Assembly (NCBI GenBank): GCA_965205975.1
Contig: OZ242195.1
Span: 640,001 to 704,000 of the forward strand
DNA length: 64,000 nt
Direction of reading: 5' to 3'
Source of the DNA: Candidatus Latescibacterota bacterium
GTDB lineage: Bacteria; Latescibacterota; UBA2968
Shown: piece after piece, positions 44,945-59,702 of the stretch
Position numbering within the stretch: position 1 is the stretch's first letter
Layout: every line of letters begins with the position of its first letter
The notes under the pieces: generated by a model
Told to the model about the DNA's origin: nothing
The model's database searches: none
What the model saw: the letters and a program-made list of their open reading frames with translations, nothing else
Made by a program: the position numbers and the translations under genes

Positions 44945-45069
44945 GGCGAACGGGATGACTCTGTCACTTCAACACGTCGAGATGGATGTCGCAGTCTGTC
45001 GTCTTCTTGAAAACGTAGGTTCGGCGCAGGAGTGTGAAAATGGGGTCCGGCAAAGTATCCTCGTTATTA
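44945..45069 (-). repeat. Possible degenerate attC-like inverted repeat (125 bp)
   Basis: TAATAAC at HAD stop ... GTTCGCC; AACGAGGATACTTTGCC pairs imperfectly with GACAGAGTCATCCCGTT. Confidence 0.35.
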
Positions 45070-45672
45070 AAGAAGTCCCAGATGATTCAACTTCTGCTGA
45101 AGACCATCGGCTCCAGCATAGGTGTGTCCGATTATACCCAATCTCGTCGCCGCTGCCACATGCCCGGCGTTGTCGTCTATGAACAGAGCCTGCTCTGGAG
45201 TTGCTTCCACAGTATCTAAGGCTGTGAAGTAGATGTTGGGATCGGGTTTTGCAAACCCGACCTCTGAGGAGTTGATGATGTAATCGAAATCCTCGGCGAT
45301 GCCCAGTCGCTGAAGGTCTGAGTGTAACCTTGAGGTCGCATTGCTGATAAGGACTAAACGCGCCCTCTTTCGACAAGCCCGCAAGATCTCCAGGACCTCC
45401 AAATCGACTTCCCCTGGCGATGCGGACCAGAGTTCAACCGCGCGCTCCGCGTTGGTGTTAGGGAAGTCCTTGCTGAGCAGGTCCGCAATTCTCCGCCGCC
45501 ACTCATCGTCAGAGATTTGTCCTGTGATTACCAGGGGGAGCAAGTCATCTGAGAATGCAGCCCTGGGGATGGCTCCTTCGGGAAGCTCGGTTGCTCGTTC
45601 CGCCTTACGATGTATTTCAGGGGACCAGATCCGAATTACCCCATCGAGGTCTGTCAGGATTACGTTTGTCAT
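45067..45672 (-). CDS. HAD family hydrolase
   Basis: DLDGV, SN, KPDP, FIDD. Confidence 0.92.
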   Translation of the reverse strand: MTNVILTDLDGVIRIWSPEIHRKAERATELPEGAIPRAAFSDDLLPLVITGQISDDEWRRRIADLLSKDFPNTNAERAVELWSASPGEVDLEVLEILRACRKRARLVLISNATSRLHSDLQRLGIAEDFDYIINSSEVGFAKPDPNIYFTALDTVEATPEQALFIDDNAGHVAAATRLGIIGHTYAGADGLQQKLNHLGLL

Positions 45673-45716
45673 TGAGTTTAGTGTTTTCCTGTGTTTTTTA
45701 CACACGATGCTTGCTG

Positions 45717-46550
45717 TCACTTATCCTCATTCTTGGTCGCAATGAAGATCATCTCTTTTTCGTGTTCAGAACTCAGGGTCTCGTCTGTCCAATCGCCTTT
45801 GACATCGACATCTCGAAAGCCTGCCAATTCCAGCATCCACATCAGTTCATTTCGATGGTACCAGTGCGTCTGTCCGGTGTGAATTTCCTCTTTTATGAGA
45901 CGGTCGCCTTCGTATAGTTCATATCGCCGTTCTCGGACAGCATATTGCGCCACCGTATCTTCAAAAATCTTGTGGTGGTAAACCAGTAGGCGCTTTCCGT
46001 CTTCAAGCTCCTTGTTGGCGATCTGTTTCCACTCGCCAGGCCATGCGTGAATCTCTTTGGGGCCCCAGTAATAAAAACTATGGGCTGGAGCAACATTAAA
46101 GGCGAGAATTCCACCAGGCTCCAAATGAGCGTGGCATCGGCGGAGCGTTTCCAATGCCGCTCGCCGCCCCATTACACACTGGAAACCACCGCACGGGATG
46201 TAGATGGCATTAAATCGATCGGGGAGATCCAACTGCTGCATCTGCTGCTCGTAGAGCACGGGATCCAGTCCCATCGCGTTCGCATGCAGGCGACATACAG
46301 ATAGCATATCGCCCGAAATGTCCACCCCCTGCACATCAAATCCTTCTTGCAAAAAGGTCAGTAGTAACCGCCCCGCTCCGCATCCCAGTTCCAGGGTCTT
46401 ACTTCCAGCTTTCTCAAGGATGCCTTTGTAGAATGACTTGTCTATGCGGGGATCTGACGTCGATATCGTAGCCCAATGAAGTGCGGAGAGTCCAGTGTAC
46501 AGATCTCGTTCATCGAATTTCATGAAAATATCCTCATAAAGCGGAGACAT
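45717..46550 (-). CDS. Class I SAM-dependent methyltransferase
   Basis: LELGCGAGR, GVDIS, HLEPGG. Confidence 0.92.
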   Translation of the reverse strand: MSPLYEDIFMKFDERDLYTGLSALHWATISTSDPRIDKSFYKGILEKAGSKTLELGCGAGRLLLTFLQEGFDVQGVDISGDMLSVCRLHANAMGLDPVLYEQQMQQLDLPDRFNAIYIPCGGFQCVMGRRAALETLRRCHAHLEPGGILAFNVAPAHSFYYWGPKEIHAWPGEWKQIANKELEDGKRLLVYHHKIFEDTVAQYAVRERRYELYEGDRLIKEEIHTGQTHWYHRNELMWMLELAGFRDVDVKGDWTDETLSSEHEKEMIFIATKNEDK

Positions 46551-46577
46551 TCAGTATCCGGGTTTTGTTTTTCCGCT

Positions 46578-47804
46578 TCACAGAAGATTCCCTTGTGCGC
46601 GGGAGTTGTGGCCTATCACCGTGATCGGCTCGGTCATTCCTATACAGACATTGCCACTCACGAGGTTCCAGTCACTGTGGCCACTCTCGACGATGCCTCG
46701 CGTCTGGCACGGTGTGTCTCCTCCAACCGTCGGAGATTTGTCAACATTATCGGCGCAACGGTTGCCCTGGACAAGAAATCTTTTGGCATTGTGCAGGCGC
46801 AGGGCGGGATAAGCGCCAGGCTTCTTCCATGAATTGCTCCGAAGGATGTTCCCGACGATCACATTTTCCACGCCATCGCTTGCGTTAATGCCCCATTTGC
46901 CATTCTCTGAGCACACATTGTTGCTGATGATGTTGTGGTGATCCTCCCCATGCCCCACGCCGCCGATGCCACTGTGGTCGTTGCCTGTGAAGACACTGTC
47001 GCTACATATAGAGTCGCGCACATGGCCGCAGAAGTACAGACCGTCTCCGCCGTTTCCAATGGCGATGTTGTGTGACCAAATGCTGCGTTCTATACCAGTG
47101 CCGGGGTGGTATCCGTGTCCGCGACAAAAGCGAACCTGACAGTGGGTGACCTGCGCATCCGAGCCGCCCTGCACGCTGATGCCGTCACTCGGCCAGTCGA
47201 TGACCGCTACATTCTGGATGCGTACACCTCTACAGTAGATAGTGTGTACAGCGCTGTAAGTGAAGTCTTGCCACCAGCGCCCTTTGGGATCTCTCGCCCC
47301 ACGTAGCGTCAAATCGCGCAAGCTCACATCGTCTCTACGGACAGCAGTAATGCCCGGGAAGAGGCCGACGATCTGGGCTCCCTCTTTTACCCTCAGGCCC
47401 CTGTTCAGTGGCTCGCTCAAGCGAACGAGGTCGCCCTTTACCGACTTCACCAGCGCGTGGGTCCCGTCCCACCATTGGCGAGGTCGATCGTTCAGCCCGA
47501 CACCATCGTCTGCTACAAAAGGCACTCGTCCGCGCAAGTAGATGTTGCGGGAACCTTTGCGGGCATCTCGAATCAGGAATAGTGCCTTGGGTGCAGCTAT
47601 CGTCAGTTCAGTCGCTGATCCATCGCCGATGAGGCTTATGCCACTTCGGAGGACAATCGACTGACGTAGCCGCCATTTGCCTGCCGGAATCCGAACGCTC
47701 CCACCTCGCTCGCCAAGGGCGTCAATCGCCTCCTGAATCCCCGAGGTAGCCGAATCCTGATCGAGAGATGCCGTGATTACTTCGTTCATCATGGGCTTAC
47801 TCAT
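46578..47804 (-). CDS. Right-handed parallel beta-helix repeat protein
   Basis: GIQEAID..GG.V.IPAG; repeated N.C..N..GI rungs. Confidence 0.82.
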   Translation of the reverse strand: MSKPMMNEVITASLDQDSATSGIQEAIDALGERGGSVRIPAGKWRLRQSIVLRSGISLIGDGSATELTIAAPKALFLIRDARKGSRNIYLRGRVPFVADDGVGLNDRPRQWWDGTHALVKSVKGDLVRLSEPLNRGLRVKEGAQIVGLFPGITAVRRDDVSLRDLTLRGARDPKGRWWQDFTYSAVHTIYCRGVRIQNVAVIDWPSDGISVQGGSDAQVTHCQVRFCRGHGYHPGTGIERSIWSHNIAIGNGGDGLYFCGHVRDSICSDSVFTGNDHSGIGGVGHGEDHHNIISNNVCSENGKWGINASDGVENVIVGNILRSNSWKKPGAYPALRLHNAKRFLVQGNRCADNVDKSPTVGGDTPCQTRGIVESGHSDWNLVSGNVCIGMTEPITVIGHNSRAQGNLL

Positions 47805-48042
47805 TTCGCGCGGTCGTGTTATGTGTCGTGCAATCCTCTATCCGTCGCCGAATGTGCCAATTGCGATCTCGTAATCGTGCCTGTCGGCGAACCCCACCTT
47901 CGTCTGCGATAGGATGGTGGTAGGCGTAGTCCCGGATCGGCTGTATCCAATTCCAGCCCTTCAGTGGCTGGCAGCATTTTCGCAGGAAGCGACTGACGTC
48001 GTCGAAATCGTCTGCGGGATCGAAAAGTCTTTGAGTTATCAT
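47797..48042 (-). pseudogene. Probable N-terminal fragment of a GNAT-type protein
   Basis: MITQRLFDPADDFDDVSRFL...NWIQP..DYAYHHP then non-conserved tail; family from recall. Confidence 0.45.
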
Positions 48043-48047
48043 AAGAT

Positions 48048-49076
48048 TCATCCGGCACCAGCGCGTGCCAGAGCGCGATCTTCTGCGTCATAGTCGAAGA
48101 TGGACTGGTCGTATTCCTCCGGTGGGTTCTCGCGTGCCCAGTCAACCGTACGCTTCATGCCCACGTTCAAATCCGTCCTGTGTTCCCAGCCCAATTCGTC
48201 GCGAATCCTGCTGACGTCGTAGATGAGGTCTTGCGCGGGGTTCGCCAGTTGTCCGAGATGGTCGGGCAGTTTGTCCTCGGGGAGGGTTCGGATTTCGCCC
48301 TTCCAGCCCGCAGCTTTTGCAATTGATTCAACCCATTCTCGCTCCGTGCAGTAATTTCCGTCTCCCACATTGTAGATTCGTCCGGCAGCTGAGGCGTTTA
48401 CCGTCGCGGCGACAATGGCCTCGGCGACGTCGTCGATATATCCGCGGATGAAGCGCCAGTGCGCGGTCTCTTCACCCAGCAAAATCACCGACCGACCGTC
48501 GAGCATCTTCTTGAGGTATCCCCAGGGACGGTGGTCGCCGGGACCATAAACGGCCGGCAATCTGAGAATTGTCGTGTCGAACGCCTGTGAAAGTATTCGC
48601 TCTATGGGGATCTTGTCGTAGAAATCCAGGTGCTTGTGCGGGTCGTCGTCAGACCGAAGCGATTCGCCGCGGTAGGGATACAGTCGCATTCGGAGGTCAC
48701 CGTCTTCGCGGATGGGGACTTCCTGAAGCGGACCTGTTTCGTATCCTCTCATGATGTCATAGGCGTGATAGACGTCACCGCTCGAGAGGACGACAACTCT
48801 GGGCGCAACATCCTGCATGGTGTCGGTGAATGTCTGCGCGAATTGCTCGTTCATGGCAATCGTGTCAAGGAGGACATCCACTTTCAGCGATAGGAACTGT
48901 TCACGGAAGTCGTCCAGATCCAGTCGATTGCCGTGAATATGCTCGACGCTGTCCGGAACGAGATCGGCGTTGTGCTTCCCCCGGTGGAAGACGGTGACGG
49001 TATGACCGGCTTCAGCCAGCCTGGCGACAGCATGGGCACCGATAAAGCGCGTGCCACCGATGACGAGTATGTTCAT
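48048..49076 (-). CDS. NAD-dependent epimerase/dehydratase family
   Basis: GGTRFIG, SSGDVY, LR.P.VYGP. Confidence 0.9.
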   Translation of the reverse strand: MNILVIGGTRFIGAHAVARLAEAGHTVTVFHRGKHNADLVPDSVEHIHGNRLDLDDFREQFLSLKVDVLLDTIAMNEQFAQTFTDTMQDVAPRVVVLSSGDVYHAYDIMRGYETGPLQEVPIREDGDLRMRLYPYRGESLRSDDDPHKHLDFYDKIPIERILSQAFDTTILRLPAVYGPGDHRPWGYLKKMLDGRSVILLGEETAHWRFIRGYIDDVAEAIVAATVNASAAGRIYNVGDGNYCTEREWVESIAKAAGWKGEIRTLPEDKLPDHLGQLANPAQDLIYDVSRIRDELGWEHRTDLNVGMKRTVDWARENPPEEYDQSIFDYDAEDRALARAGAG

Positions 49077-49183
49077 GATATCATTGCCCTATCTAATAGA
49101 CCTGTTTTTTATGTTTTGCTGTTCAAATGGATTTCGAATCTCCACCAATATTGCCTTGTTTCCTCAGCTTTCATAGCACTTAC

Positions 49184-49555
49184 CTAAACCTTCACATTGG
49201 CATAGAAATTGACGATGTTCCCATCCGGGTCACGAAACCAAACAGATCGGCGCCCCCATGATTGGGTTGTAGGCGGTTTAACAATCTCAACATTCATGGC
49301 TTTCAAACGCTCAAAGTCCCGGTCGACGTCTTCTACCTCAAACTCGATAGTATAGCTACCATATCCAGCTCCCTTCAGGCATCCAGGAGCCATCTTCTCC
49401 GTGCGTTCTGAGGAGAAGATTGACAAATCTGCACCCTCCGTTGGAATGATCTCAAATATATTTCCTTCTTCTGGTTCAAGTTTTAGTATTTCTCTGTAGA
49501 AAGCGCACAATCTGTCCACATTCTGCGTTATTATACAAATGCCAGTGAACTGCAT
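49184..49555 (-). CDS. VOC/glyoxalase family protein
   Basis: EFEVEDVD...WGRRSVWFRDPDGN. Confidence 0.92.
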   Translation of the reverse strand: MQFTGICIITQNVDRLCAFYREILKLEPEEGNIFEIIPTEGADLSIFSSERTEKMAPGCLKGAGYGSYTIEFEVEDVDRDFERLKAMNVEIVKPPTTQSWGRRSVWFRDPDGNIVNFYANVKV

Positions 49556-49573
49556 GATGGACCTCCAGAAGTC

Positions 49574-50008
49574 TCAGTGAAATTCTTTTGGACGGCGCAG
49601 GACGCGTCGCCTCCTTCGAGGTGGGAAAGTCACGGTTTGTGTATAAGGGTGCCAGTCGGTTGCGATGTCCCAACTTTCTCGCTGCTGGGGGAAGGTGTAC
49701 AGCACAATGCCGCGATCTTTCGGAGGACGCCACCGTCCCTGACCGAGCAACTGATCTACCACTGCTGCAAATTCTGCCGTCATGGCTTCTCGAAAGATGC
49801 GAGAGTTTCTCACGGATCGGCTGACGCCACCCGGGTATTTTCGCCAGGTCGCAGGATCATCCCGCAATACGCCCTCTCTCTCCAGCCGACGCCAGATCGT
49901 TGATTCCATCTCAGCGGCGTCTTCGGCTGTAAAGGCGCGCACCTTGACGTAGCCTCGGGTGCAGAGCTGCTCAAGGTCTTGTTCGTTCAGCGGTCCGTCA
50001 GTCGTCAT
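49574..50008 (-). pseudogene. Truncated PhyH family dioxygenase
   Basis: PhyH-like N-terminus ends at DWH; HxD Asp and distal His absent, unrelated basic tail. Confidence 0.7.
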
Positions 50009-50062
50009 GGAATTGCCTTTCTATATCGGTGAATAGAATGAATTCGCCACTGATGTCAATCA

Positions 50063-50167
50063 TGGCAGAGGGTGTGGGGATCGAACCCATATACGGGATA
50101 TCCCACAGGATACCCGTAGCCCTCGGTTTGGAAGCCTCGGGGCCAGCACCACTGGCTCTCACCCCCT
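50063..50167 (-). tRNA. Non-canonical tRNA (allo-tRNA-like 8/4 fold, 8-nt anticodon loop CUUCCAAA)
   Basis: Acceptor AGGGGGUG/CACCCUCU + GCCA; D stem GCCAG/CUGGC; 11-bp variable stem; T arm UGGG-UUCGAUC-CCCA. Confidence 0.8.
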
Positions 50168-50241
50168 GCTCAATAATACGACGATGTCATAAAATGGAAT
50201 GTTTCGGATGGGATAGGGAGGGATTCATATTCCCTGTCTTT

Positions 50242-51378
50242 CTATGGCGTATCGATCCACCAGTGATACACGTTCGTCAAGTGCTGTTCATACGCATGCG
50301 ACGCCTGCAGTAGCAGCCGATTCCGCTTGTGTGGATTCAGCGATCCGACCACGATGCTGTTCGAATATGCTGCGATTCCCTTCTCGCGCATCCTCAAGTA
50401 GATGCCGTCATCCCAGGCAAAGCCATCTCGTGAAGCATATAGAACAAAGTGACCTTTTTCCTCTTTCTTACCCTGCAAGAATGCACTGCGTCCGTGCATG
50501 AAATAACAGCCGTTTAGCACGGCCATCTGAGGGTTTCGGATCTTCTTTTTAAAGTGTGCGATCCTTGGTTCGGACCAGGTCCGACCATCGTCGTCGCTCA
50601 CCACATAGTCCATCGTGTGCTCAGCCTTGCTGTTGTATATGTACACAATGATGTTTCCGTTATCGCGTATCCCCATGGTTCCATACGATTTCCCAATGGT
50701 GTCGAAGGGAAGCTCGCTGCGCTTCTCGAAGGTCCGGCCGCCGTCTCGGCTCACGTGCAACTCGTACACATGCTCGGGCTTGTTGCCCAGGAAATTGATC
50801 TCGTTGTCGTTCCTGAAGTGGAGCGCGAGTATCTCTCCGTTGTGATACTTTGCATCGTAGAGCCTGCCCCGACTGTCGCACAGTGCAGATGGCTCACGCC
50901 ATGTGTACCCTCCATCCGGACTGCTGATGTATGTCGGCACCTGAAATTGCCTCCAAATGACATTGGCCGTGATATCACATACAAGAAAAAAGAGGACGAT
51001 TTCACCCTTGTCCGTTCGAATTGCCTTCTCGGCGAAGGCGGACAATTTCTTGCTGGTCTTCCCGCTCTGTCCGGTGTCGAACAAGTTTTTCGAATAGGCG
51101 ACCACGTTCCGATCGCTCCAGGTCTCGCCGCTGTTTTCCGATCGCTTGTATTCCATCCAGCCTCTAGCCGAGTGGCCCTTGCCAGACTTCTTCGGGTTGT
51201 GGCTTTCGGCGGAGCAGTTCGGATAGAAGGCGAGGATCTTCCCGTCCTCATACTCCACCAGTGCGTGCCCGAGATTTCCACCTCTTTTTGCCGGGGAGTG
51301 ATCGACGAAGAGAATCCCATCGTTCGGTGGGTCTTTGGGGGTGATCTCATAATCTGCTATGTTTGGGTTCGCGTCCAC
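50242..51378 (-). CDS. Sialidase-like BNR/Asp-box beta-propeller protein
   Basis: Asp boxes SENSGETW, SPDGGYTW, SRDGGRTF, SDDDGRTW, SRDGFAW. Confidence 0.85.
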   Translation of the reverse strand: MDANPNIADYEITPKDPPNDGILFVDHSPAKRGGNLGHALVEYEDGKILAFYPNCSAESHNPKKSGKGHSARGWMEYKRSENSGETWSDRNVVAYSKNLFDTGQSGKTSKKLSAFAEKAIRTDKGEIVLFFLVCDITANVIWRQFQVPTYISSPDGGYTWREPSALCDSRGRLYDAKYHNGEILALHFRNDNEINFLGNKPEHVYELHVSRDGGRTFEKRSELPFDTIGKSYGTMGIRDNGNIIVYIYNSKAEHTMDYVVSDDDGRTWSEPRIAHFKKKIRNPQMAVLNGCYFMHGRSAFLQGKKEEKGHFVLYASRDGFAWDDGIYLRMREKGIAAYSNSIVVGSLNPHKRNRLLLQASHAYEQHLTNVYHWWIDTP

Positions 51379-51398
51379 AAGTGCCTCCCTGGATGAAT

Positions 51399-52847
51399 TT
51401 AAATGCCTTTGTAGCTTCTGGCGGAGTACATTTCAAAGCCTTCGGGGCCGGGGTATCCGTCGAAGAGGTTGCATTCGGGTACATTGCCGGGTGCGCCATT
51501 TTTGAGCCAGTCGATGAAGATGGGGTCGGCATTGCGGTGTTCGAGTTCGGCGAGGCCCGATGCGTGAAGGTCTTGAACGCGGTCGGGATTTTCAGAAGCG
51601 ATATTGTCCAGAGAGCCGTAGGAGGTGAGGATGCTGTCTTCGGGGTTGGGGTGCCATTCGAGATAGCCTTCTTGATCGAAGACGGTAAAGTAGCCGCGTT
51701 GAAGATGTCGCATCGCTTTGCCGCGCGCCACGCCTGATAGGGCGATTTTGCGATTGCCCATGCTGTTTTCACGTGCAGCTTTGAGGATGTCATAACTTTC
51801 GATATTGTCGGGAACAGGCGCGCCTGACAGGTTAGCGATGGTGGCGAAGAAATCTTGTGGTTGAAAGATGGCAGAACTGCGACCTGTATCGCCTTCGGGT
51901 GTTTTGATGAAAAGTGGGATGTGGATTTCTTGTTCGCGAACGGGTGCGCCTTTGCCGAATCTGCCGCGTTCACCGACGTTGGTGCCGTGATCGCCTGCGA
52001 CGAGTATGGCGGTGTTTTTATCCAGGCCTGTGGCTTCAAAGGCTTCGAGGAATCGGCCAAAGCAGTGGTCCATCCAGGTGACTTTGGCTGCATAACTCGC
52101 TTTGATGCGTGCTCTGGCTTCATCGGGTAAGTTGGGATTGCTGCGGGCTTGCGTTCCTCCCTTGAAGGTGCGCGGATCGAGCCGACCGTCATAGCCAGGT
52201 GTTTTGTCGTATTTGAGCATGTATTCGGGGGGTACGTCCCAGGGTTCGTGGGGGTCAAAGCAGTCGATCCAGAGGAAGAAATTTTCCCGGTTTTTATTGT
52301 CGCGGAGAAATTCGGCGACGGTGTTGAAGAGTCTGGCGCAGTTCCAGTCGTCTAAGTTTTCACGGCCTCTGTTGGTGCGAGCATATTGTATGGTTGGTAT
52401 TGGGAGTTCGTCTTCAAGGATGTCAAAGAGCGGGTCTTTTGCCCAGTTGCTGGGCCATTTGGCTTCGTCATTCATCCAGGCGCGGTCAACTTCGGCACCG
52501 CGGATGAAGGTCCAGGTGTGAAAGGGATAATCAAAGGCGTGGCCCCCGTTGACGAGGTGGGGGGTGTCGTGCAGGAGTTGCGTTGCGTAGCCTGCTTCGC
52601 CGAGGACATACGGCAGTGCATTGGTGTTGAAGGGCAGTGGTTTCCAGGCGTGAAAGGGGCTGCCGTATTTGCCAGTCATGACGTCGGTGCGATAGGGGAT
52701 GGTGGGGAAGCTCGCTGCGAAGGCACGGTCGAAACACCAGGATTGTGAGGCCAAGCGGTCGAGGTTGGGTGTTTCGATCCAGTCATTGCCGTTGGCACCG
52801 ATATAGTCGTAGCGCATGGTGTCGATGATTAAGAGAATGATGTTCAT
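51399..52847 (-). CDS. Sulfatase-like hydrolase (TxPxR variant)
   Basis: IIDTMRYD, PTIPYR..MTG, DPHEPW, GDHG. Confidence 0.88.
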   Translation of the reverse strand: MNIILLIIDTMRYDYIGANGNDWIETPNLDRLASQSWCFDRAFAASFPTIPYRTDVMTGKYGSPFHAWKPLPFNTNALPYVLGEAGYATQLLHDTPHLVNGGHAFDYPFHTWTFIRGAEVDRAWMNDEAKWPSNWAKDPLFDILEDELPIPTIQYARTNRGRENLDDWNCARLFNTVAEFLRDNKNRENFFLWIDCFDPHEPWDVPPEYMLKYDKTPGYDGRLDPRTFKGGTQARSNPNLPDEARARIKASYAAKVTWMDHCFGRFLEAFEATGLDKNTAILVAGDHGTNVGERGRFGKGAPVREQEIHIPLFIKTPEGDTGRSSAIFQPQDFFATIANLSGAPVPDNIESYDILKAARENSMGNRKIALSGVARGKAMRHLQRGYFTVFDQEGYLEWHPNPEDSILTSYGSLDNIASENPDRVQDLHASGLAELEHRNADPIFIDWLKNGAPGNVPECNLFDGYPGPEGFEMYSARSYKGI

Positions 52848-52904
52848 TGTAAACCTCTGGGGGTGAATAGATGAATCAGGGGTGATATTGTAACACAATA
52901 CTTT

Positions 52905-54143
52905 TCATGGTTCTTTGTCTTCGATACTAACAATAGATGGAATCATCCGGGCAGATGTTCCGAGAATGAGGGTTAGTACTCCCGCTGCTAAGAACCACGG
53001 CTGCGGGCCAAAAATATCGGTTACGGGACCTATCACGATGAGACCAAGCATAGTTGTAAATTGCACGGAACTATGGAGAGCACCAAATACGCGGCCTTGT
53101 AGATGGGGATCGACATTGGCCTGAAGGAGTGCGCGGAGAGGCGCGTTAATTAGCGAGCTACCGACACCGCTTAAAGCTATGCCCGTGATGGCTAAAGCAA
53201 AGCGGGTATGAGGGGCGATACCTACGAGTATTGTTCCAATGCCATACACAATCCAGCCGAAGATCGTCGTCATGATTCGGCGACGGAATCCACCCCAGGC
53301 CCCGACCAGAAGACCTCCCAGGACAATGCCCACTCCCCAGGCAGAATTAAACCAACCAAGTTCGGTAGCACCTCCATTGAAGTGATCTGTTATCAAGAGG
53401 GGCGAGATGGTCATCTTCGTGTTCCCAAATATGTTTAATACGGCAGCAATTAAGATTAAGTTCCGAAGACCAGTCCATCTCCACAAATAACGAAATCCTC
53501 CCAGCATATCAGCCCAGATTCCAACCTCCTGGCTTTGCTTTTCCTCCATCCTTTTTGGTTGTGGAATCATGATGAAGATGAGGGGGCCGATAGCCAGCGT
53601 CGCCGTCAAAACATCGATGGCCAATATGAGATGTATCTCGAACACAGCCAACGCCAGTGCTCCAAGGGGGGGACCTCCCATACTGAGTACTCCATGCAGG
53701 GTTTGATTCGTCCCCTGAATCCTGGCCAGATGTTTTTCGGGTACCATCAAAGGCGTGGAAGTTATCATTGCCAGGCCCTGGAATGCACGGCCTATACTCG
53801 CCAGGAAGTTTACTGCGTAGATATGCCAGATCTCGATAATTTCCATCCAGAAAAGACCAGCAAGACCTGCCATGGCTATTGCAACAAGCGTATCCGAGAC
53901 GAGCATTACAATTCGGCGGTTCCATCTATCATTCAGTGCGCCAATGATGGGAGCCAGGAAGACTTCTGGCAGATAGGCGACAAGGACTGAGGTCGCGAGA
54001 ATGGTCGCAGATCCTGTCTTTTCCGTAAGCCACCACACCAGGGCAAACTGTGCAACTTGGGTTCCAAGAGACGACAGCGTTTGTCCGGTCCAGATGGTAA
54101 AGAAGCCGCCAGCCCATGATCCGTCTCTATTTAGATGAATCAA
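52905..54143 (-). CDS. MFS transporter, Mef/DHA3-like efflux family
   Basis: IWTGQ..S.LG...QFAL.WWL...TGSA; DRWNRR..M; QGRVFG. Confidence 0.88.
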   Translation of the reverse strand: MIHLNRDGSWAGGFFTIWTGQTLSSLGTQVAQFALVWWLTEKTGSATILATSVLVAYLPEVFLAPIIGALNDRWNRRIVMLVSDTLVAIAMAGLAGLFWMEIIEIWHIYAVNFLASIGRAFQGLAMITSTPLMVPEKHLARIQGTNQTLHGVLSMGGPPLGALALAVFEIHLILAIDVLTATLAIGPLIFIMIPQPKRMEEKQSQEVGIWADMLGGFRYLWRWTGLRNLILIAAVLNIFGNTKMTISPLLITDHFNGGATELGWFNSAWGVGIVLGGLLVGAWGGFRRRIMTTIFGWIVYGIGTILVGIAPHTRFALAITGIALSGVGSSLINAPLRALLQANVDPHLQGRVFGALHSSVQFTTMLGLIVIGPVTDIFGPQPWFLAAGVLTLILGTSARMIPSIVSIEDKEP

Positions 54144-54728
54144 TCATCTCTCCTTTTTGTCTGAATCGGCAAGAAAGAATGTTCCCCTCTTTTTGAACTG
54201 AAAACTCTCATCGGGTACGACGAACGCCAGTTTATCACACAAAAAAGAGCCAGACGGAACTGAATTTTGGAGCCGTACACAAAGCTCAAGGCTCTCGTCT
54301 ATGGAGATGAACTCAGCAATGGTCATGTGCGGAGCTATGTTGCGCCTGTGATACGCTTCGCCGGAAAATGCCGATGTACTGTGGAGGATCTGCTTTAAAT
54401 TATCGATAGGCTCTCGTGGCCTTATCGGATACGAGACACCAGGATGCCTCGTTGAGGCATGCGGCTTGTCGTAATGAAGCGTGAATGGCTGGACATCAGT
54501 AAGGACGTTGTTGATTTCATCGATAAGATCAGGCGTCATTTTCCGGCTCAAGGGATCTGACAAAGAGATGTGCGTCGGACAGGAGGTAGCTGAGCGGGGA
54601 TCATACTTTGCCCGCAAGAGATCAATCTCCTGAGATACCTCTGGAGGGGGCATGATAAGGATGAGGCCAAAACAGTAGTCGCGTTGCCAATCTTCCCACT
54701 TCGATGTGTCTTTTACGTATGAAATCAT
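54144..54728 (-). CDS. 2H phosphoesterase (2'-5' RNA ligase family)
   Basis: Two HxS/T motifs: HISL and HMTI. Confidence 0.85.
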   Translation of the reverse strand: MISYVKDTSKWEDWQRDYCFGLILIMPPPEVSQEIDLLRAKYDPRSATSCPTHISLSDPLSRKMTPDLIDEINNVLTDVQPFTLHYDKPHASTRHPGVSYPIRPREPIDNLKQILHSTSAFSGEAYHRRNIAPHMTIAEFISIDESLELCVRLQNSVPSGSFLCDKLAFVVPDESFQFKKRGTFFLADSDKKER

Positions 54729-54760
54729 GAGGAACTCTCACGGGGTGATAGCATAGACGT

Positions 54761-54950
54761 GTTAGCCGATCATGGCGCTTATTTGCGCCGCTGATCAGCA
54801 ATATACTCACGTAGCTTCTCGATCGAGGGAGAATCCACATCCCGCAGCGGTGCACCAGCCGGGTGTTTGTGGAAATTTACCTTTTCGTCCAGTTGGGCTT
54901 CAGCTAGGAAACATGCCGCTTCAGTGTTCTGTAGCGGCATGACGGCTAAC
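54761..54950 (-). mobile_element. Mini cassette-like unit: GTTAGCC - 53-aa ORF (54779-54940) - GGCTAAC
   Basis: Perfectly complementary core/inverse-core heptamers with extended imperfect IR of about 18 bp. Confidence 0.5.
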
Positions 54951-55036
54951 GTCTTCGACTTAAGAAAAAAATACCTGGCTTCGGTTTATACCCCATTTTT
55001 CGATTTACAGCAAGTATTCGTTCATTATTGGCATTA
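54946..55036 (-). pseudogene. C-terminal fragment of GNAT acetyltransferase
   Basis: NANNERILAVNRKMGYKPKPG resembles GNAT motif B; no plausible 5' part. Confidence 0.6.
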
Positions 55037-55588
55037 TAAGCTGTAGATCCATTTGTCCCGATGTAAGAGAAATACAGACCGCTCGGGCAACATGCGGTCC
55101 TTAAATTCGCCTCTACCCGGCCCGGGCGGTACGCGCTCAACTTCCTCGAAACCCAGCCGACGGAGAAGACGGACAGACCGTTTGTTTGCTACAACGCATC
55201 TGGCTTCAATTTCGCCGAGGTCCAAATCTTCAAAACCCACCTGCAAGATGCTCCGGACAGCTTCTGACGCAAAGCCCTGACCCCAATAAACGGGCGACAA
55301 TTCGTAGCCTATGTCACCCTGTCGGCTTTCAATGCTTTCTGTGCGTATTCCGCAATTACCGAGTAATATTCCATTTGAGCGGTCCGTGATGGCCAGCTGG
55401 AATTTGCATCTCGGATTTTCTTTAGACCATGCAATGCATTTATCTACAAAGCGGACGCACTCCTCTCTGGTGTAGGCGGGCCGGTAGTAGTATTCCAGAT
55501 ACTTGGGGTCTCTCCTGTACTCGGCGATGGCATCCACGTCTTGTTTGGTGAACTCTCTCAGAAGCAGGCGTTCAGTCAGTTTTTCCAT
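55034..55588 (-). CDS. GNAT acetyltransferase, RimJ/RimL-like
   Basis: TERLLLREF, IGYEL...WGQGFASEA, N.RS.RLLRRLGF. Confidence 0.92.
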   Translation of the reverse strand: MEKLTERLLLREFTKQDVDAIAEYRRDPKYLEYYYRPAYTREECVRFVDKCIAWSKENPRCKFQLAITDRSNGILLGNCGIRTESIESRQGDIGYELSPVYWGQGFASEAVRSILQVGFEDLDLGEIEARCVVANKRSVRLLRRLGFEEVERVPPGPGRGEFKDRMLPERSVFLLHRDKWIYSL

Positions 55589-55607
55589 ATAGAAAGACCG
55601 TTTTGAA

Positions 55608-56561
55608 TTACGTTTGAAGCCTTTGAAAAGCCTTAAGAGTTGATGGATCAGTGACTATTTCCCTTGCGGCTTCAATAGTCAACCATTTGGCAGCATAAAA
55701 TTCCTGTAGATCAATGTTGAAATTGCTGCCATCTGTAAGAAGTAAATACCAGATGTCATAATGAGACTGGCAGGGTTGCACGGGATTTTCTATTGGTGTA
55801 ATGGTCAACAAAAACGGTTGTGGTTCAGATTTAAAAAAGTTCCATACTCCCAATTCTTCACCTATCTCACGGTTCAAAGCTGCCAAAAGCGTCTCGTCTT
55901 TATCTATATGACCACCAGGAGAAAGCCAAAGACCAGACTTTTTATGGTGGATGACAAATACCTTTTTGCTCTGGGTATCATAGGGCAGAAAATAGACACA
56001 AAAATGGGTCTCCGGATTTTCATCTCGCGTTGGTTTTCCTTCTTTCACTCTTTGTTTATAGAGAGTATAGGTTTCCCCATTGTCACATATATCACGGTCG
56101 ATAACTTTTGCAATTGATTCTTGTGTTTTCATATTGAAGTTTCTGCTCTTATGATACCTGAATACACGCTTGCCGATACGCACTTTGTTACGCTCAAGAA
56201 ATTTGTAGCCTGCCTGTTTCAGCGTATAGGACTTGTATTTGAACTTGCTACGGAATTGTGGCGGTCGCTTGTTGTCTCTGGCAAAGAATCTCTTATAGCC
56301 AAAGTCTATGCGCTCAATCACATTTTGCAATGCCTGAGACGGTAGCAGACGCCAGTGGGCAAAGCGCGGCGTGTCCTTCAGCTTCTTGAGGTGATTGATC
56401 AGTGTGAACTTACTCGGATACTTGCCAAATCGCTGGTAGTATCGCTTATGTAGTGCGATGAAGTGATTATACACTTCGGCAAAGTCGTTTATCTCATGGT
56501 GGAGATACCGATTGCGGTCACACGTTGAATACAACTTGAATTTGTAGGTCAGGTAGTCCAT
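55608..56561 (-). CDS. In-frame fusion: TnpB N-terminal half (56133-56561) + NUDIX hydrolase (55608-56132)
   Basis: YKFKLY...VYNHF...SQALQ...RFF...PQFRSK..Y.SYT.KQ; then PGGHIDKDETLLAALNREIGEELG. Confidence 0.85.
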   Translation of the reverse strand: MDYLTYKFKLYSTCDRNRYLHHEINDFAEVYNHFIALHKRYYQRFGKYPSKFTLINHLKKLKDTPRFAHWRLLPSQALQNVIERIDFGYKRFFARDNKRPPQFRSKFKYKSYTLKQAGYKFLERNKVRIGKRVFRYHKSRNFNMKTQESIAKVIDRDICDNGETYTLYKQRVKEGKPTRDENPETHFCVYFLPYDTQSKKVFVIHHKKSGLWLSPGGHIDKDETLLAALNREIGEELGVWNFFKSEPQPFLLTITPIENPVQPCQSHYDIWYLLLTDGSNFNIDLQEFYAAKWLTIEAAREIVTDPSTLKAFQRLQT

Positions 56562-56791
56562 TATTCTCTTGTTTTTTGTCGGTTTTAGTTTGTATTTTTA
56601 ATGACTTAAACATAAGTAAAATATATACTTATGTATCGTTTTTGTCAAGCAGAAAGAGCACTTGTGCTAAGCATGTTCCGTGACGATTTTACACGGAAGC
56701 AGAAACAAAATCATAAGCCATTGCAAAACAACGCTCGCCAACTCGCGTCTGCTTCCCACGCCTAAAGGCTGTGGGCTTTACGGGCTATTTG
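56133..56791 (-). mobile_element. IS200/IS605-family element, left part only
   Basis: TTTAT|CAAATAGCCCGTAAAG then hairpin CCCAC-A-GCC-TTTA-GGC-GTGGG (56755-56775); tnpB 5' half; no right end or tnpA. Confidence 0.8.
56610..56648 (-). promoter_or_regulatory. tnpB promoter with palindrome over the -10
   Basis: TTGACA-N17-TATATT; IR ACATAAGTA-N7-TACTTATGT at 56610-56634. Confidence 0.7.
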
Positions 56792-56958
56792 ATAAAGTAA
56801 CAATTTCATATGAATCATTCGGTTCTGAAAAAAGTTTCGATGACCTTCTTGAACTGACTGCAAAGGTCTATGAAGGACTCTCCGCTGACGACATCGACGG
56901 CATTGAGAAGATTGCACACGGCCGTCGCGATTTTTTTGGAGATAGAACAGGTGCTTAA
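56792..56958 (+). pseudogene. 3' half of DUF104/AF2212-like antitoxin gene cut by IS605 insertion
   Basis: KVTISY...DDLLELTAKVYEGLS.DDID.IEKIA..R.DFF*; begins exactly at IS left end; family from recall. Confidence 0.55.
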
Positions 56959-57073
56959 CATTCCCATTCTATCAACTAAACATCGGAAAATCAATTTGAT
57001 AATTCGGCTTGCGAGATGTATTTTCGATTATAGATCTCGCTCTGCTTTAAACCTCCCAAACCGAGGAGAAACC

Positions 57074-58684
57074 ATGTTGCGAGTCAGCGACCCCGACCTG
57101 ATCGCCCACTGGCCGTTCCGGGAAGACCTGAAAGACCATTCCGAAAGCGGTCTGCCCATCCAAAATCACGGTGTTGAAATCGGGGAATCAGGTGGACAAA
57201 GAAGCGCCCAATTCGACGGGGCGGAAACCTTTCTGGAAGTTCCCTGCGACCTGTCTATAGGGACAGGCGATTTTTCATGCGCCGGATGGATCTATACGGA
57301 AGAAACTGAAGTGGTCGGCGATATTCTCAGCCAATTCGATCCGGAAACCCGCCAGGGATGGCAGATTTCGGTCCTCACCAATACCGGAATGACCTCCACT
57401 GCCCAATCGAATTACCGCAACCTCCACTTTGGCATCGACAACGGGCATCTCGGGTCCTGGACCGATTGCGGTCGTCCCGGTCAGGCGGTCAAAATATCTG
57501 CACTTTCAACATTAGGTGGACACCTGTACGCCGGCACCTTTGAGAATGGCGAAGAAGAGGTCGGCCACCTGTGGCGCTATGAAGGGGAAAAACGCTGGAC
57601 CGATCTGGGCAATCCAGTCGGATGCAACTCTGTCAACGCCGTCGTCGAATTTCAAGGCGCGCTCTACTGCGCTCTCGGCCGGTATAATAGCATCGGCTCC
57701 GCTCTGGGCGATCCCCTGAACACCACACCCGGTGGCCAGGTTTATCGGGTCGATGCCGATGGTCAATGGACTTTTTGCGGACATCCAGGCATCGAAGACG
57801 CCACACCCGAAGAAACACCCACCACGGGACACAACACGGGCAAAGCCGACAACGCCACCGCGCTCACAGTCTATCAGGGTCGGCTCTACGCCACCAGCCT
57901 CTACCGCGAGGGTGCCTTTGTCTATGATGGCGGCACCACCTGGACGCCCATAGGTCCAGACGTGCGGCTGATGAGTTTCACCGTCTATCGGGACAGGCTC
58001 TACACCCTCGTCAATGGCGGCCCGGTTCTTCGCTACGAAGGCAACGCCGAATGGACCGACTGCGGCTGTCCAGAAACCTCTACCCAGACCTACTCGGCGG
58101 TCACTTTCAAGGGGCAACTCTATGTCGGCACCTGGCCTCAGGGCGAAGTCTATCGATATGACGGCAATACGACCTGGACCTGTCTGGGGCGGGCCGGGTA
58201 CGAACGTGAGATTATGGCGATGGGACTTTACAACGGCAAAGTCTATATCGGCTCGCTCCCAATGGCCAATGTCTGGCGGATGGACGGCAATCGGTTCACA
58301 TTCTTAGAGTCTCTGGACCGCACGTCCGCGCCCCTGCGGCGGGTCTGGTCCATGGCCATTTATGAGGGCCGCCTCTATGCTGGCACCCTGCCGTCTGGAC
58401 ACGTCTATTCGGTCGAAGCCGGAAAAGTCGCCACCTGGGACCGCGCATTTCCCGAAGGATGGCGACACGTAGCCGCTGTCAAGCAGGGCGGCGTTCTGAC
58501 CCTGTACGTCGATGGAATCTCCGTCGCTACAACAGATAGCTTCAATCCAAAACGCTACGACCTCGATCCCAACTGTCCTCTCTTAATCGGCTTTGGTGCC
58601 CACGACTATTTCAAAGGCGCCCTGCGAGACATTCGTATCTATCGCCGGGGCCTCACACAACGGGAAATCCAGCGCCTTCAGTGA
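57074..58684 (+). CDS. LamG/concanavalin-like domain protein with inserted beta-propeller
   Basis: LIAHWPF...FDG; repeated .G.LY.GT blades; WRHVAAV...LYVDG...FKGAL.DIRIY; GAGGAG RBS. Confidence 0.8.
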   Translation: MLRVSDPDLIAHWPFREDLKDHSESGLPIQNHGVEIGESGGQRSAQFDGAETFLEVPCDLSIGTGDFSCAGWIYTEETEVVGDILSQFDPETRQGWQISVLTNTGMTSTAQSNYRNLHFGIDNGHLGSWTDCGRPGQAVKISALSTLGGHLYAGTFENGEEEVGHLWRYEGEKRWTDLGNPVGCNSVNAVVEFQGALYCALGRYNSIGSALGDPLNTTPGGQVYRVDADGQWTFCGHPGIEDATPEETPTTGHNTGKADNATALTVYQGRLYATSLYREGAFVYDGGTTWTPIGPDVRLMSFTVYRDRLYTLVNGGPVLRYEGNAEWTDCGCPETSTQTYSAVTFKGQLYVGTWPQGEVYRYDGNTTWTCLGRAGYEREIMAMGLYNGKVYIGSLPMANVWRMDGNRFTFLESLDRTSAPLRRVWSMAIYEGRLYAGTLPSGHVYSVEAGKVATWDRAFPEGWRHVAAVKQGGVLTLYVDGISVATTDSFNPKRYDLDPNCPLLIGFGAHDYFKGALRDIRIYRRGLTQREIQRLQ

Positions 58685-59682
58685 CGGCTCTTCAGCCACC
58701 AGCGCATGGTATTACTGACCATATCCGCTGCGTCTCGTTGAACCCAATGGCCGCTGCTGGGGATGGTGACGAGTGTGTAGTCTTTGTTGATCCAATTCCA
58801 CGTGTCGCGTAACCCGTCTTTGTCAACAGCCTTGTCTTTCAACCCGTGGAATTGCAATATGGGCATGGTGAGATTGGGCATCTCCAGGCTCTGGCCAGAC
58901 CCCGCAGTTAGACCGCTATAGGCCGCCCGGTAGTAGTCGAGCATGCCCTTGACCGAGGATTGGGAGAACGCATTGATGTAGCGCTGCCGCACTTCGTCTG
59001 AGGCATTACCCACCGAAATACGTGTAAGCACCTCGGGCGAGAACCGTTTTTCGTATCCAGGCGTTTGAAAGTCGGTAATGTATTTAGTATTCCTCTTTTG
59101 CTCTGCCGTCGCGTTACGCAGCACGGTGCCGTAGCCCTTCGGGTGAGTCAGATTGCAGATCACCAGCTTGTTGACGAGTTGCGGATAGTACATGGCGAAC
59201 CGCCACGAAATGGCGCCCCCCCAATCGTGACCAACGAGGGTGACCGAATCGACCGCCAGATCCTTGATTACAGCTTCGACATCCGACATGAGATGGGACA
59301 TGGTGTAGTGTTCCACGCCTTCGGGCTTGCCGCTCTTGTTGTAGGCGCGTGTGTCCATAGCGACGGTCTTATAGCTGTCGGAAAGAGCGGCCATCTGTTC
59401 GCGCCAGGTATACCAAAAATCGGGAAAGCCATGGACAAAGAGAATAACGGGGCCTTCGCCCAGGGTGACGTAGTGGAGTGTCACCCCGTCGTTATCCGTC
59501 TCATGGTGCTCGACGCGGTCAAATACATCTGCCTTGACGTTAGCTATCGGGGATTTGACGGCACCCTTTAGGCGTTCCTGCTGCGCCTGCCCCTGGGCGA
59601 AGAAAATACAGGAGCAAATGACCACCAGTATTGAGCGTGTTATGCGTTGTTTGGTTCGTTGTGATAGTTTCATGGCGTTCAT
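58678..59682 (-). CDS. Alpha/beta hydrolase, epoxide hydrolase family, signal peptide
   Basis: HGFPD, GHDWGG, GHWVQ. Confidence 0.9.
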   Translation of the reverse strand: MNAMKLSQRTKQRITRSILVVICSCIFFAQGQAQQERLKGAVKSPIANVKADVFDRVEHHETDNDGVTLHYVTLGEGPVILFVHGFPDFWYTWREQMAALSDSYKTVAMDTRAYNKSGKPEGVEHYTMSHLMSDVEAVIKDLAVDSVTLVGHDWGGAISWRFAMYYPQLVNKLVICNLTHPKGYGTVLRNATAEQKRNTKYITDFQTPGYEKRFSPEVLTRISVGNASDEVRQRYINAFSQSSVKGMLDYYRAAYSGLTAGSGQSLEMPNLTMPILQFHGLKDKAVDKDGLRDTWNWINKDYTLVTIPSSGHWVQRDAADMVSNTMRWWLKSRH

Positions 59683-59702
59683 CGTTCCAATGGTTTGGGG
59701 GA

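Follow-up and report, generated by a model that had tools for sequence, protein, structure and literature searches.

The window analysed here, a stretch of 64,000 nucleotides from a Candidatus Latescibacterota bacterium, contains a short tRNA-like gene with an enlarged anticodon loop, which raises the question of whether its RNA reads a four-base codon, reads a triplet with the wrong amino acid or serves a purpose outside decoding. A preliminary description of the sequence had proposed an allo-tRNA-like gene with an 8/4 fold, a very long variable arm and a candidate four-base anticodon (UCCA), probably charged with Ser, which would read UGGA or misread Trp or Gly codons and be carried as cargo of a gene array; a pseudogene derived from tRNA-Sec and a decoy for anticodon nucleases were offered as alternatives. 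Every structural element listed in it is present at 50167-50063 (minus), as follows:

50063..50167, minus strand: 8/4 allo-tRNA-like gene, 105 nt, of the long-arm UCCAA-loop type, recognised by its fold, its match to the tRNA-Sec model, its copies and covariation
50160..50167, minus strand: 5′ strand of the acceptor stem, with A1, G2, G3 (of the G3·U70 wobble), G4 and G5
50142..50156, minus strand: D arm, 5 bp with a 5-nt loop (or 6 bp with a triloop), carrying the conserved GG
50120..50141, minus strand: anticodon arm, 22 nt, composed of 3 bp, a tandem G·A, 2 bp and the 8-nt loop
50127..50134, minus strand: 8-nt loop, with the inferred U33 at 50132, CCA at 50131-50129 and A37 at 50128, the spare base lying on the 5′ side
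50092..50118, minus strand: variable arm, 11 bp, with a bulged U at 50098 and a 4-nt loop
50075..50089, minus strand: T arm, 4 bp with a 7-nt loop, the site of a 28-nt insertion in L019, L020 and RNA run X5
50063..50074, minus strand: 3′ strand of the acceptor, discriminator G73 (50066) and encoded CCA

The acceptor branch comprises 12 bp arranged as 8 + 4, as indicated by folding and covariation, and closing the eighth acceptor pair gains 2.9 kcal/mol. Together with the long variable arm and G73, the class having either G73 or U73, and with the closeness to the major 8/4 allo-tRNAs discussed below, this bears out the earlier assignment to the 8/4 class. The acceptor stem also contains the G3·U70 wobble, a feature absent from the preliminary description. 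The class has a tRNA-Sec-like D arm with a long stem and a tetraloop; this arm varies among homologues, with 5 bp and a tetraloop in L108 as opposed to the two arrangements available in the window. The anticodon arm reaches −6.2 kcal/mol with the 8-nt loop versus −4.0 for the best smaller loop, in agreement with the remark that 7-nt registers pair poorly, and the folding energy of the whole RNA is by itself insignificant (z −1.51; 17 of 200 shuffles fold equally well). ARAGORN does not call the gene and no Rfam model matches it at the gathering thresholds; the tRNA-Sec model (RF01852) reaches 34.6 bits (E 8.4e-5) against a cut-off of 47, so that, of the software check proposed earlier, only a sub-threshold selC-like match was obtained.

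A search of 61 genomes, 21 of which belong to the genus, yielded strong matches in 13 of the 21, with 16 copies in total, six of them identical over 105 nt; a long-arm copy was not seen in the remaining eight. The loop CUUCCAAA is found in 16/16 copies. A contig from RNA run X1 covers 49983-50164 with the same loop and a single difference, located outside the gene. The 8-nt loop is therefore no assembly error, given the identical 105 nt in five other genus genomes, the loop in all copies and the independent RNA library contig. Half of the copies (8/16) carry one further G in the 5′ strand of the anticodon stem. Four of the 16 are broken, by one 5′ deletion, one 3′ truncation and two T-loop insertions, and one copy has the T-loop change A58G. 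In the G006 copy (L013), compensatory changes have occurred twice in the D stem and once in the variable stem. In an unfitted MAFFT alignment of ten long-arm members, two-sided changes occur at 7 of 28 pairs, a count reached by 0 of 500 shuffles, and the structure of the long-arm RNA is under selection. The tRNA-like 8/4 gene is thus real and conserved.

The sequencing runs containing the stretch are sponge and coral metagenomes. Both the extra-G form and a form with the T-loop insertion are present in RNA run X5, and contigs of runs X6 and X10 leave the gene uncovered; contigs from these runs are uninformative on strand or level and may include DNA carry-over. The insertion of ~28 nt, with a short AACTTC/GAAGTT hairpin, occupies the same T-loop place in long-arm copies and in one sister RNA (L019, L020, L129) and recurs at two further genome sites (G000 C1:2985366 and C1:4324378); it may have been left behind by a small mobile element. 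Since the host genome (G000) has a full tRNA set, with a canonical selC (70.1 bits) and selA elsewhere, the window RNA is an accessory gene. Replacement of tRNA-Sec and quadruplet Sec coding were both considered and rejected, canonical selC and selA being present.

The loop itself indicates the reading register. A metagenome scan with an unconstrained anticodon arm (8 loci) and a covariance search yielded five distant homologues with a long variable arm (L108, L109, two in L110, and L088). All five keep an 8-nt loop closed by G-C. When the window copy is added, loop positions 3-7 (UCCAA) are invariant in 6/6, and position 2 is U in three, A in two and C in one, so that the base that would serve as U33 in a UCCA register is U in only 3/6. 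U33 is nearly universal in tRNAs. Taken with the invariant UCCAA, this points to the register U33-C34-C35-A36-A37, in which the loop would present the Trp anticodon CCA with a spare base on its 5′ side, and not a four-base UCCA. A Gly register (UCC), which seemed possible in the extra-G form, was rejected because position 33 would then fall on the variable base. Loop conservation among homologues and covariation, both suggested earlier as checks, were thus found, and the four-base register is not supported.

The window RNA belongs to a wider family of 8/4 and 9/3 cloverleaves that have the acceptor end and T arm in common. They often stand two to four in tandem, and their anticodon arms end in 4-, 6-, 10- or 12-nt loops, many of them without an anticodon. 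One such site lies in the host at a fixed intergenic position that holds 1-4 copies across the genus:

G000 C1:5229416-5229613 (L038:7417-7614), minus strand: tandem sister pair, a 9/3 RNA with a 4-nt loop and an 8/4 RNA with a 12-nt loop

Among 43 distinct family sequences, 96.2% of cells pair and two-sided changes occur at 26 of 33 pairs (0/500 shuffles), in an alignment fitted to the model. A1 and G73 are each found in 43/43, G3·U70 in 42/43 and the encoded CCA in 39/43, an invariance that is partly circular because the collecting patterns and both covariance models favour that acceptor; the UCCAA loop is present in 10/43. A search of 132 genomes of the class with the family model gave members in 24, with 21/30 in the bacterial family, 2/22 in the sister family, and 0/76 and 0/3 beyond the order, to which the RNA family appears to be confined. 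Members score 52-86 bits versus at most 36 for the canonical tRNAs of the host.

Some members depart further from the common plan. A 133-nt member (L127:4180-4312) has an extra hairpin inside the anticodon loop, and loops containing UUCAA (opal or Sec-like) or UCCAG occur in sisters at L106:1998-2092, L104:2001-2092, L094:164-259 and L106:2261-2355. L104 lies upstream of an ORF resembling an ECF sigma factor, and L098 adjoins an apparent nucleotidyltransferase-HEPN pair, both named by eye. Phage and plasmid collections gave no blastn match to the window RNA. Scans of viral contigs for the family returned 0, or one unrelated match each, and one further scan of metagenome contigs gave 0; some of the metagenome and viral scan patterns exclude the T-loop variant of the window and sample sisters only. 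Two tRNA-like stretches in a phage tRNA cluster (L174:866-951 and 1517-1621), not called by ARAGORN, are by score unrelated to the family.

Which amino acid the RNA would carry is less clear-cut than its fold. The bacterial Trp identity set comprises G73, A1-U72, G2-C71, G3-C70, G4-C69, G5-C68 and the anticodon CCA, as given in PMC9976931. The window RNA has all of these, with CCA placed in an 8-nt loop, except G3-C70, which is replaced by G3·U70, the Ala determinant. In the host, tRNA-Trp is the only ARAGORN-called tRNA with A1; A1-U72 and G73 are also found in soil allo-tRNAs with non-Trp anticodons. The RNA also bears the Ser marks of a long variable arm and G73, alongside the Ala mark (G3·U70, though with G73). 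A bulge in the variable stem can block SerRS on 9/3 allo-tRNAs, according to PMC7590224. The earlier proposal of Ser charging keeps the support of the long variable arm and G73, and is made less certain by the Ala and Trp identity elements and by the bulge in the variable stem. The host encodes one SerRS, one AlaRS and two TrpRS genes.

No partner protein is linked to the window gene. A search for non-ribosomal users of aminoacyl-tRNA found no FemAB and one PF09924 protein, unlinked to the gene; a lanthipeptide-dehydratase domain gave no match, and the controls were equally silent. The genome has a single T-box riboswitch (G000 C1:3280693-3280943, minus), with a Phe specifier and ahead of pheS, and Trp regulation by T-box was rejected on that ground.

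The second TrpRS is present in 21/21 genomes of the genus. It is full length in ten; in the other 11 an in-frame loss, with three different breakpoints, has removed most of the KMSKS loop together with the anticodon-binding domain, and the copy of the host is of the short kind:

G000 C1:2470713-2471456 (L122:1339-2082), minus strand in G000: short TrpRS2

The dN/dS of the retained part is 0.061 for nine short copies and 0.068 for eight long ones, and the short protein remains under purifying selection. Short and long forms are intermixed on the tree. G050, G051 and G052 have further short or degenerate copies, and in G021 and G026 the gene is broken by stops; a search of 168 genomes of the phylum for its C-terminal piece gave 37 that carry it, of which all except one belong to this order. 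Full-length TrpRS2 has a four-Cys motif in the anticodon-binding domain, which resembles an Fe-S-binding TrpRS, and in the sister family the gene adjoins trpS1. TrpRS2 is more widespread than the RNA family; no family RNA lies within about 8 kb of trpS2 in the host (L123), and none was found in nine closely searched genomes that carry trpS2. Because it is unlinked to the RNA genes and occurs in these nine genomes, TrpRS2 is a lead and not a demonstrated partner. Intact long-arm copies accompany 8 of 11 short forms versus 4 of 10 full-length forms, a comparison that is not decisive, and the genomes are kin. TrpRS binds tRNA across its two subunits, as described in PMC12135181. It is conceivable, as a long shot, that the order has an anticodon-blind Trp system, in which a hypothetical heterodimer of TrpRS1 and short TrpRS2 would load Trp onto allo-tRNA mimics and give a stress-induced pool of Trp-RNA off the ribosome, or a Trp sensor. 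Such an enzyme would offer an active site without an anticodon check, and its substrates would share a Trp-like acceptor and have a variable anticodon or none.

Upstream of the gene there is a candidate promoter, which travels with it within a larger variable region:

50177..50205, minus strand: candidate promoter of the ECF/sigmaE-like type, made up of GAAAC (50205-50201) and GTC (50182-50180), with 18 nt separating GTC from the C of AAC
50039..50218, minus strand: mobile unit of promoter, RNA gene and short tail, 180 bp, which moves as a block among differing neighbours in the sister genomes
44950..59700 (boundaries approximate), no strand assigned: hypervariable array at a single chromosomal site, made of small genes that mostly share one orientation and are reshuffled from genome to genome

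The motif AAC-N18-GYC is located 36-39 nt before A1 in four of the five long-arm loci and in the sister cluster of the host. It occurs in 6 of the 20 upstream regions examined, whereas 48 canonical tRNA genes gave 0 matches and 20,000 random sites gave 0.8%, and the RpoE promoter list in PMC4336711 has the same spacing; as the motif was chosen after inspecting the sequences, the sigmaE-like promoter is a prediction. A scan for sigma70 promoters found none. The strict form of the motif has 24 intergenic matches genome-wide in the host, several of which precede ORFs that by eye look secreted or membrane-bound, and these matches may possibly constitute an envelope-stress regulon.

The array encodes HAD, methyltransferase, epimerase, glyoxalase, BNR, sulfatase, MFS, 2'-5' RNA ligase family, GNAT and NUDIX proteins. 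Its units are gene-sized, starting near a ribosome-binding site and ending near a stop, and they are reshuffled, duplicated and truncated between sister genomes; neither integron-type attC sites nor long repeats were seen in the array. The ORF at 55608-56561 (minus) fuses a NUDIX domain (Pfam match) to an N-terminal half resembling a transposase fragment of the IS200/IS605 type. The RNA unit moves within this shuffled array, as the earlier description of it as array cargo had it.

We tentatively prefer, as a reading somewhat short of probable, that the window RNA is a stress-induced mimic of tRNA-Trp, derived from an allo-tRNA and active mainly outside normal decoding. An ECF (sigmaE-like) promoter would yield a precursor with a short leader under envelope or other stress, which would be trimmed to an L-shaped RNA ending in CCA. 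This RNA would present the A1-U72/G73 acceptor and the CCA loop, the two ends read by proteins that handle tRNA-Trp, on a body whose anticodon arm (7-8 stem positions and an 8-nt loop, 22-24 nt) would be too long and irregular for efficient decoding. It could be a decoy or competitor that occupies TrpRS or tRNA-cutting toxins, or a non-ribosomal carrier of an amino acid; for the sisters without an anticodon, the acceptor half alone would suffice for this job. The over-long arm and the existence of these sisters suggest that the RNA is at best a poor decoder, and the decoy alternative raised earlier is likewise supported. Also in favour of the mimic are the covariation of the sisters as cloverleaves, the Trp identity elements, the promoter-like motif and the bulge in the variable stem. 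Several observations count against it: U33-CCA-A37, the GG of the D loop, the T loop and the CCA end are what a working decoder would keep; a natural tRNA with an 8-nt loop does read triplets; the gene has no linked partner protein; the only T-box is for Phe; the acceptor invariance is partly circular, and soil allo-tRNAs with other anticodons share A1-U72 and G73; the promoter motif was picked post hoc; four of the 16 genus copies are broken; and in eight of the 21 genomes no long-arm copy was seen.

Rather unlikely, in our judgement, is a stress-induced reader of UGG in the zero frame, charged by SerRS or AlaRS, or possibly by TrpRS, which would insert Ser or Ala at Trp codons and, like SufJ, occasionally slip +1 at UGG-N whatever the fourth base. 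The possibility of a Trp-codon misreader, already named in the preliminary description, is kept by the U-CCA-A invariant in 6/6 divergent homologues and by the single SerRS and AlaRS of the host, and there are precedents: in E. coli, allo-tRNAs with non-Ser anticodons inserted Ser, or Ala and Ser when they carried G3:U70, as reported in PMC5389517, and SufJ, with its 5′ insertion, decodes in frame 0, as reported in PMC4238358. The anticodon arm, however, contains non-Watson-Crick pairs and exceeds by 3-5 nt the 19-nt arm found in tRNA-Sec or the major allo-tRNAs. The tolerance of the further stem G in half of the genus copies and the eight stem pairs of the homologue L108 also argue against it. 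Moreover, the sisters cannot decode, which suggests that the job shared by the family is not decoding.

Improbable, to a greater degree, is that the RNA is nearly neutral cargo, an old allo-tRNA in a shuffled array that was retained only because its fold is stable, for instance to stabilise a transcript or signal processing sites, and is now decaying. Its patchy distribution (13/21 genomes), the duplications, the broken copies, the single A58G and the ordinary cover of the gene by RNA contigs, with nothing special over it in four runs, are all in keeping with such a history. The compensatory changes speak against it, as do the unpaired UCCAA, invariant while adjacent loop bases and the tips of the variable arm vary, and the promoter-like motif at the same spacing in distant loci.

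That UCCA reads UGGA and programs +1 frameshifts is very improbable. The 8-nt loop, conserved in all 16 genus copies and the five distant homologues, would suit a four-base decoder, but the variable base at its position 33 would not, and no target was found: no gene needing +1 was found among ten array copies, and in-frame TGG was found at 0 of 3 +1 sites, of 14 frame-change sites detected when 2,561 long ORFs were compared with paralogues, a search that sees genes with paralogues only and is blind to single-copy genes. TGGA makes up 4,951 of 20,003 TGG codons (24.8%, versus 24.3% expected from next-base usage), and the RNA is missing from eight of the 21 genus genomes. The window RNA is no evidence for a natural four-letter code. 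Hardly credible, finally, is a pseudogene of tRNA-Sec with one inserted C, to which the best Rfam match and the distant sister L106 with a UCA loop might point, since that match is under the cut-off, selC (70 bits) and selA lie elsewhere in the host, the RNA aligns to host selC (score 67) no better than to tRNA-Ser (60-67) and better to its sisters (72.5 and 81), and the loop is old, conserved and common to distant homologues.

The family forms a natural series, in near-complete genomes, in which the amino-acid end is fixed and the decoding end varies from an enlarged loop with a Trp anticodon down to no anticodon. What allo-tRNAs do in the cell has been an open question since 2017, and this series, accompanied by a putative stress promoter and a putative anticodon-blind synthetase, makes the question “mistranslator or mimic” directly testable with a few RNAs and three enzymes of the host. 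The genes of the family are invisible to ARAGORN and at Rfam cut-offs, and the scaffold with a long arm and an 8-nt loop may serve genetic-code engineering.

The mostly open-access literature yielded nothing on this RNA family. In the supplement of PMC5389517, a whole-word search gave no UGG codon row, UCC anticodon or UCCA, and no Latescibacterota or sponge entry. The major 8/4 allo-tRNAs of that study share with the window RNA the 12-bp 8/4 acceptor branch, the long variable arm, G73 and A1-U72; by eye, in the supplement rows, 7/8 bases of the acceptor 5′ strand and 8/8 of the 3′ strand match, and the D stem GCCAGU...ACUGG is common to both. They differ in having A3-U70 where the window RNA has G3·U70, and the 22-nt anticodon arm with an 8-nt loop, the 11-bp variable stem and the anticodon CCA are its own. 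The window RNA descends from and works like an allo-tRNA, and is set as a variant of the class because the published rows have a 6-bp anticodon stem and a 7-nt loop, whereas it has 7 stem positions and an 8-nt loop.

The polycistronic irregular tRNAs in PMC5389517, including allo-tRNA(UAU), are likewise tandem irregular cloverleaves, some of them chargeable and unused in translation, and allo-tRNA(UAU) provides a non-translating precedent. As described there, they come from soil acidobacteria and are associated with transposons or toxin-antitoxin systems, in contrast to the Latescibacterota family, which is chromosomal and order-specific and has one shared acceptor end, with many members that have no 7-nt loop.

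An 8-nt loop with the spare base 5′ of the anticodon is also found in tRNA-SufJ, which, according to PMC4238358, shows normal binding to the A site and frame-0 decoding, yet promotes +1 shifts. Yeast mitochondrial tRNA-Thr(UAG) has an 8-nt loop too and is a natural tRNA that decodes triplets (PMC3113583); a 2020 review gives one natural 8-nt loop, that of yeast mitochondria (PMC7609411). SufJ and the yeast tRNA, unlike the window RNA, combine a canonical 7/5 body with a 5-bp stem, and SufJ is a laboratory mutant.

A parallel to the Trp system considered above is offered by the selC* tRNA-Cys and CysRS* reported in PMC5389517, an 8/4 tRNA with A1:U72 and a second synthetase without an anticodon-binding domain. 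CysRS* is encoded beside its tRNA, whereas TrpRS2 is unlinked and more widespread, and in the short form loss extends to the KMSKS loop. tRNAOther of Bacillus cereus, as described in PMC3399842, has a different body and acts through T-box control of trpS1, a route that is closed to the window RNA because the single T-box of the host is Phe/pheS; being a pseudo-tRNA that carries a Trp anticodon and functions outside translation, it is the closest functional precedent.
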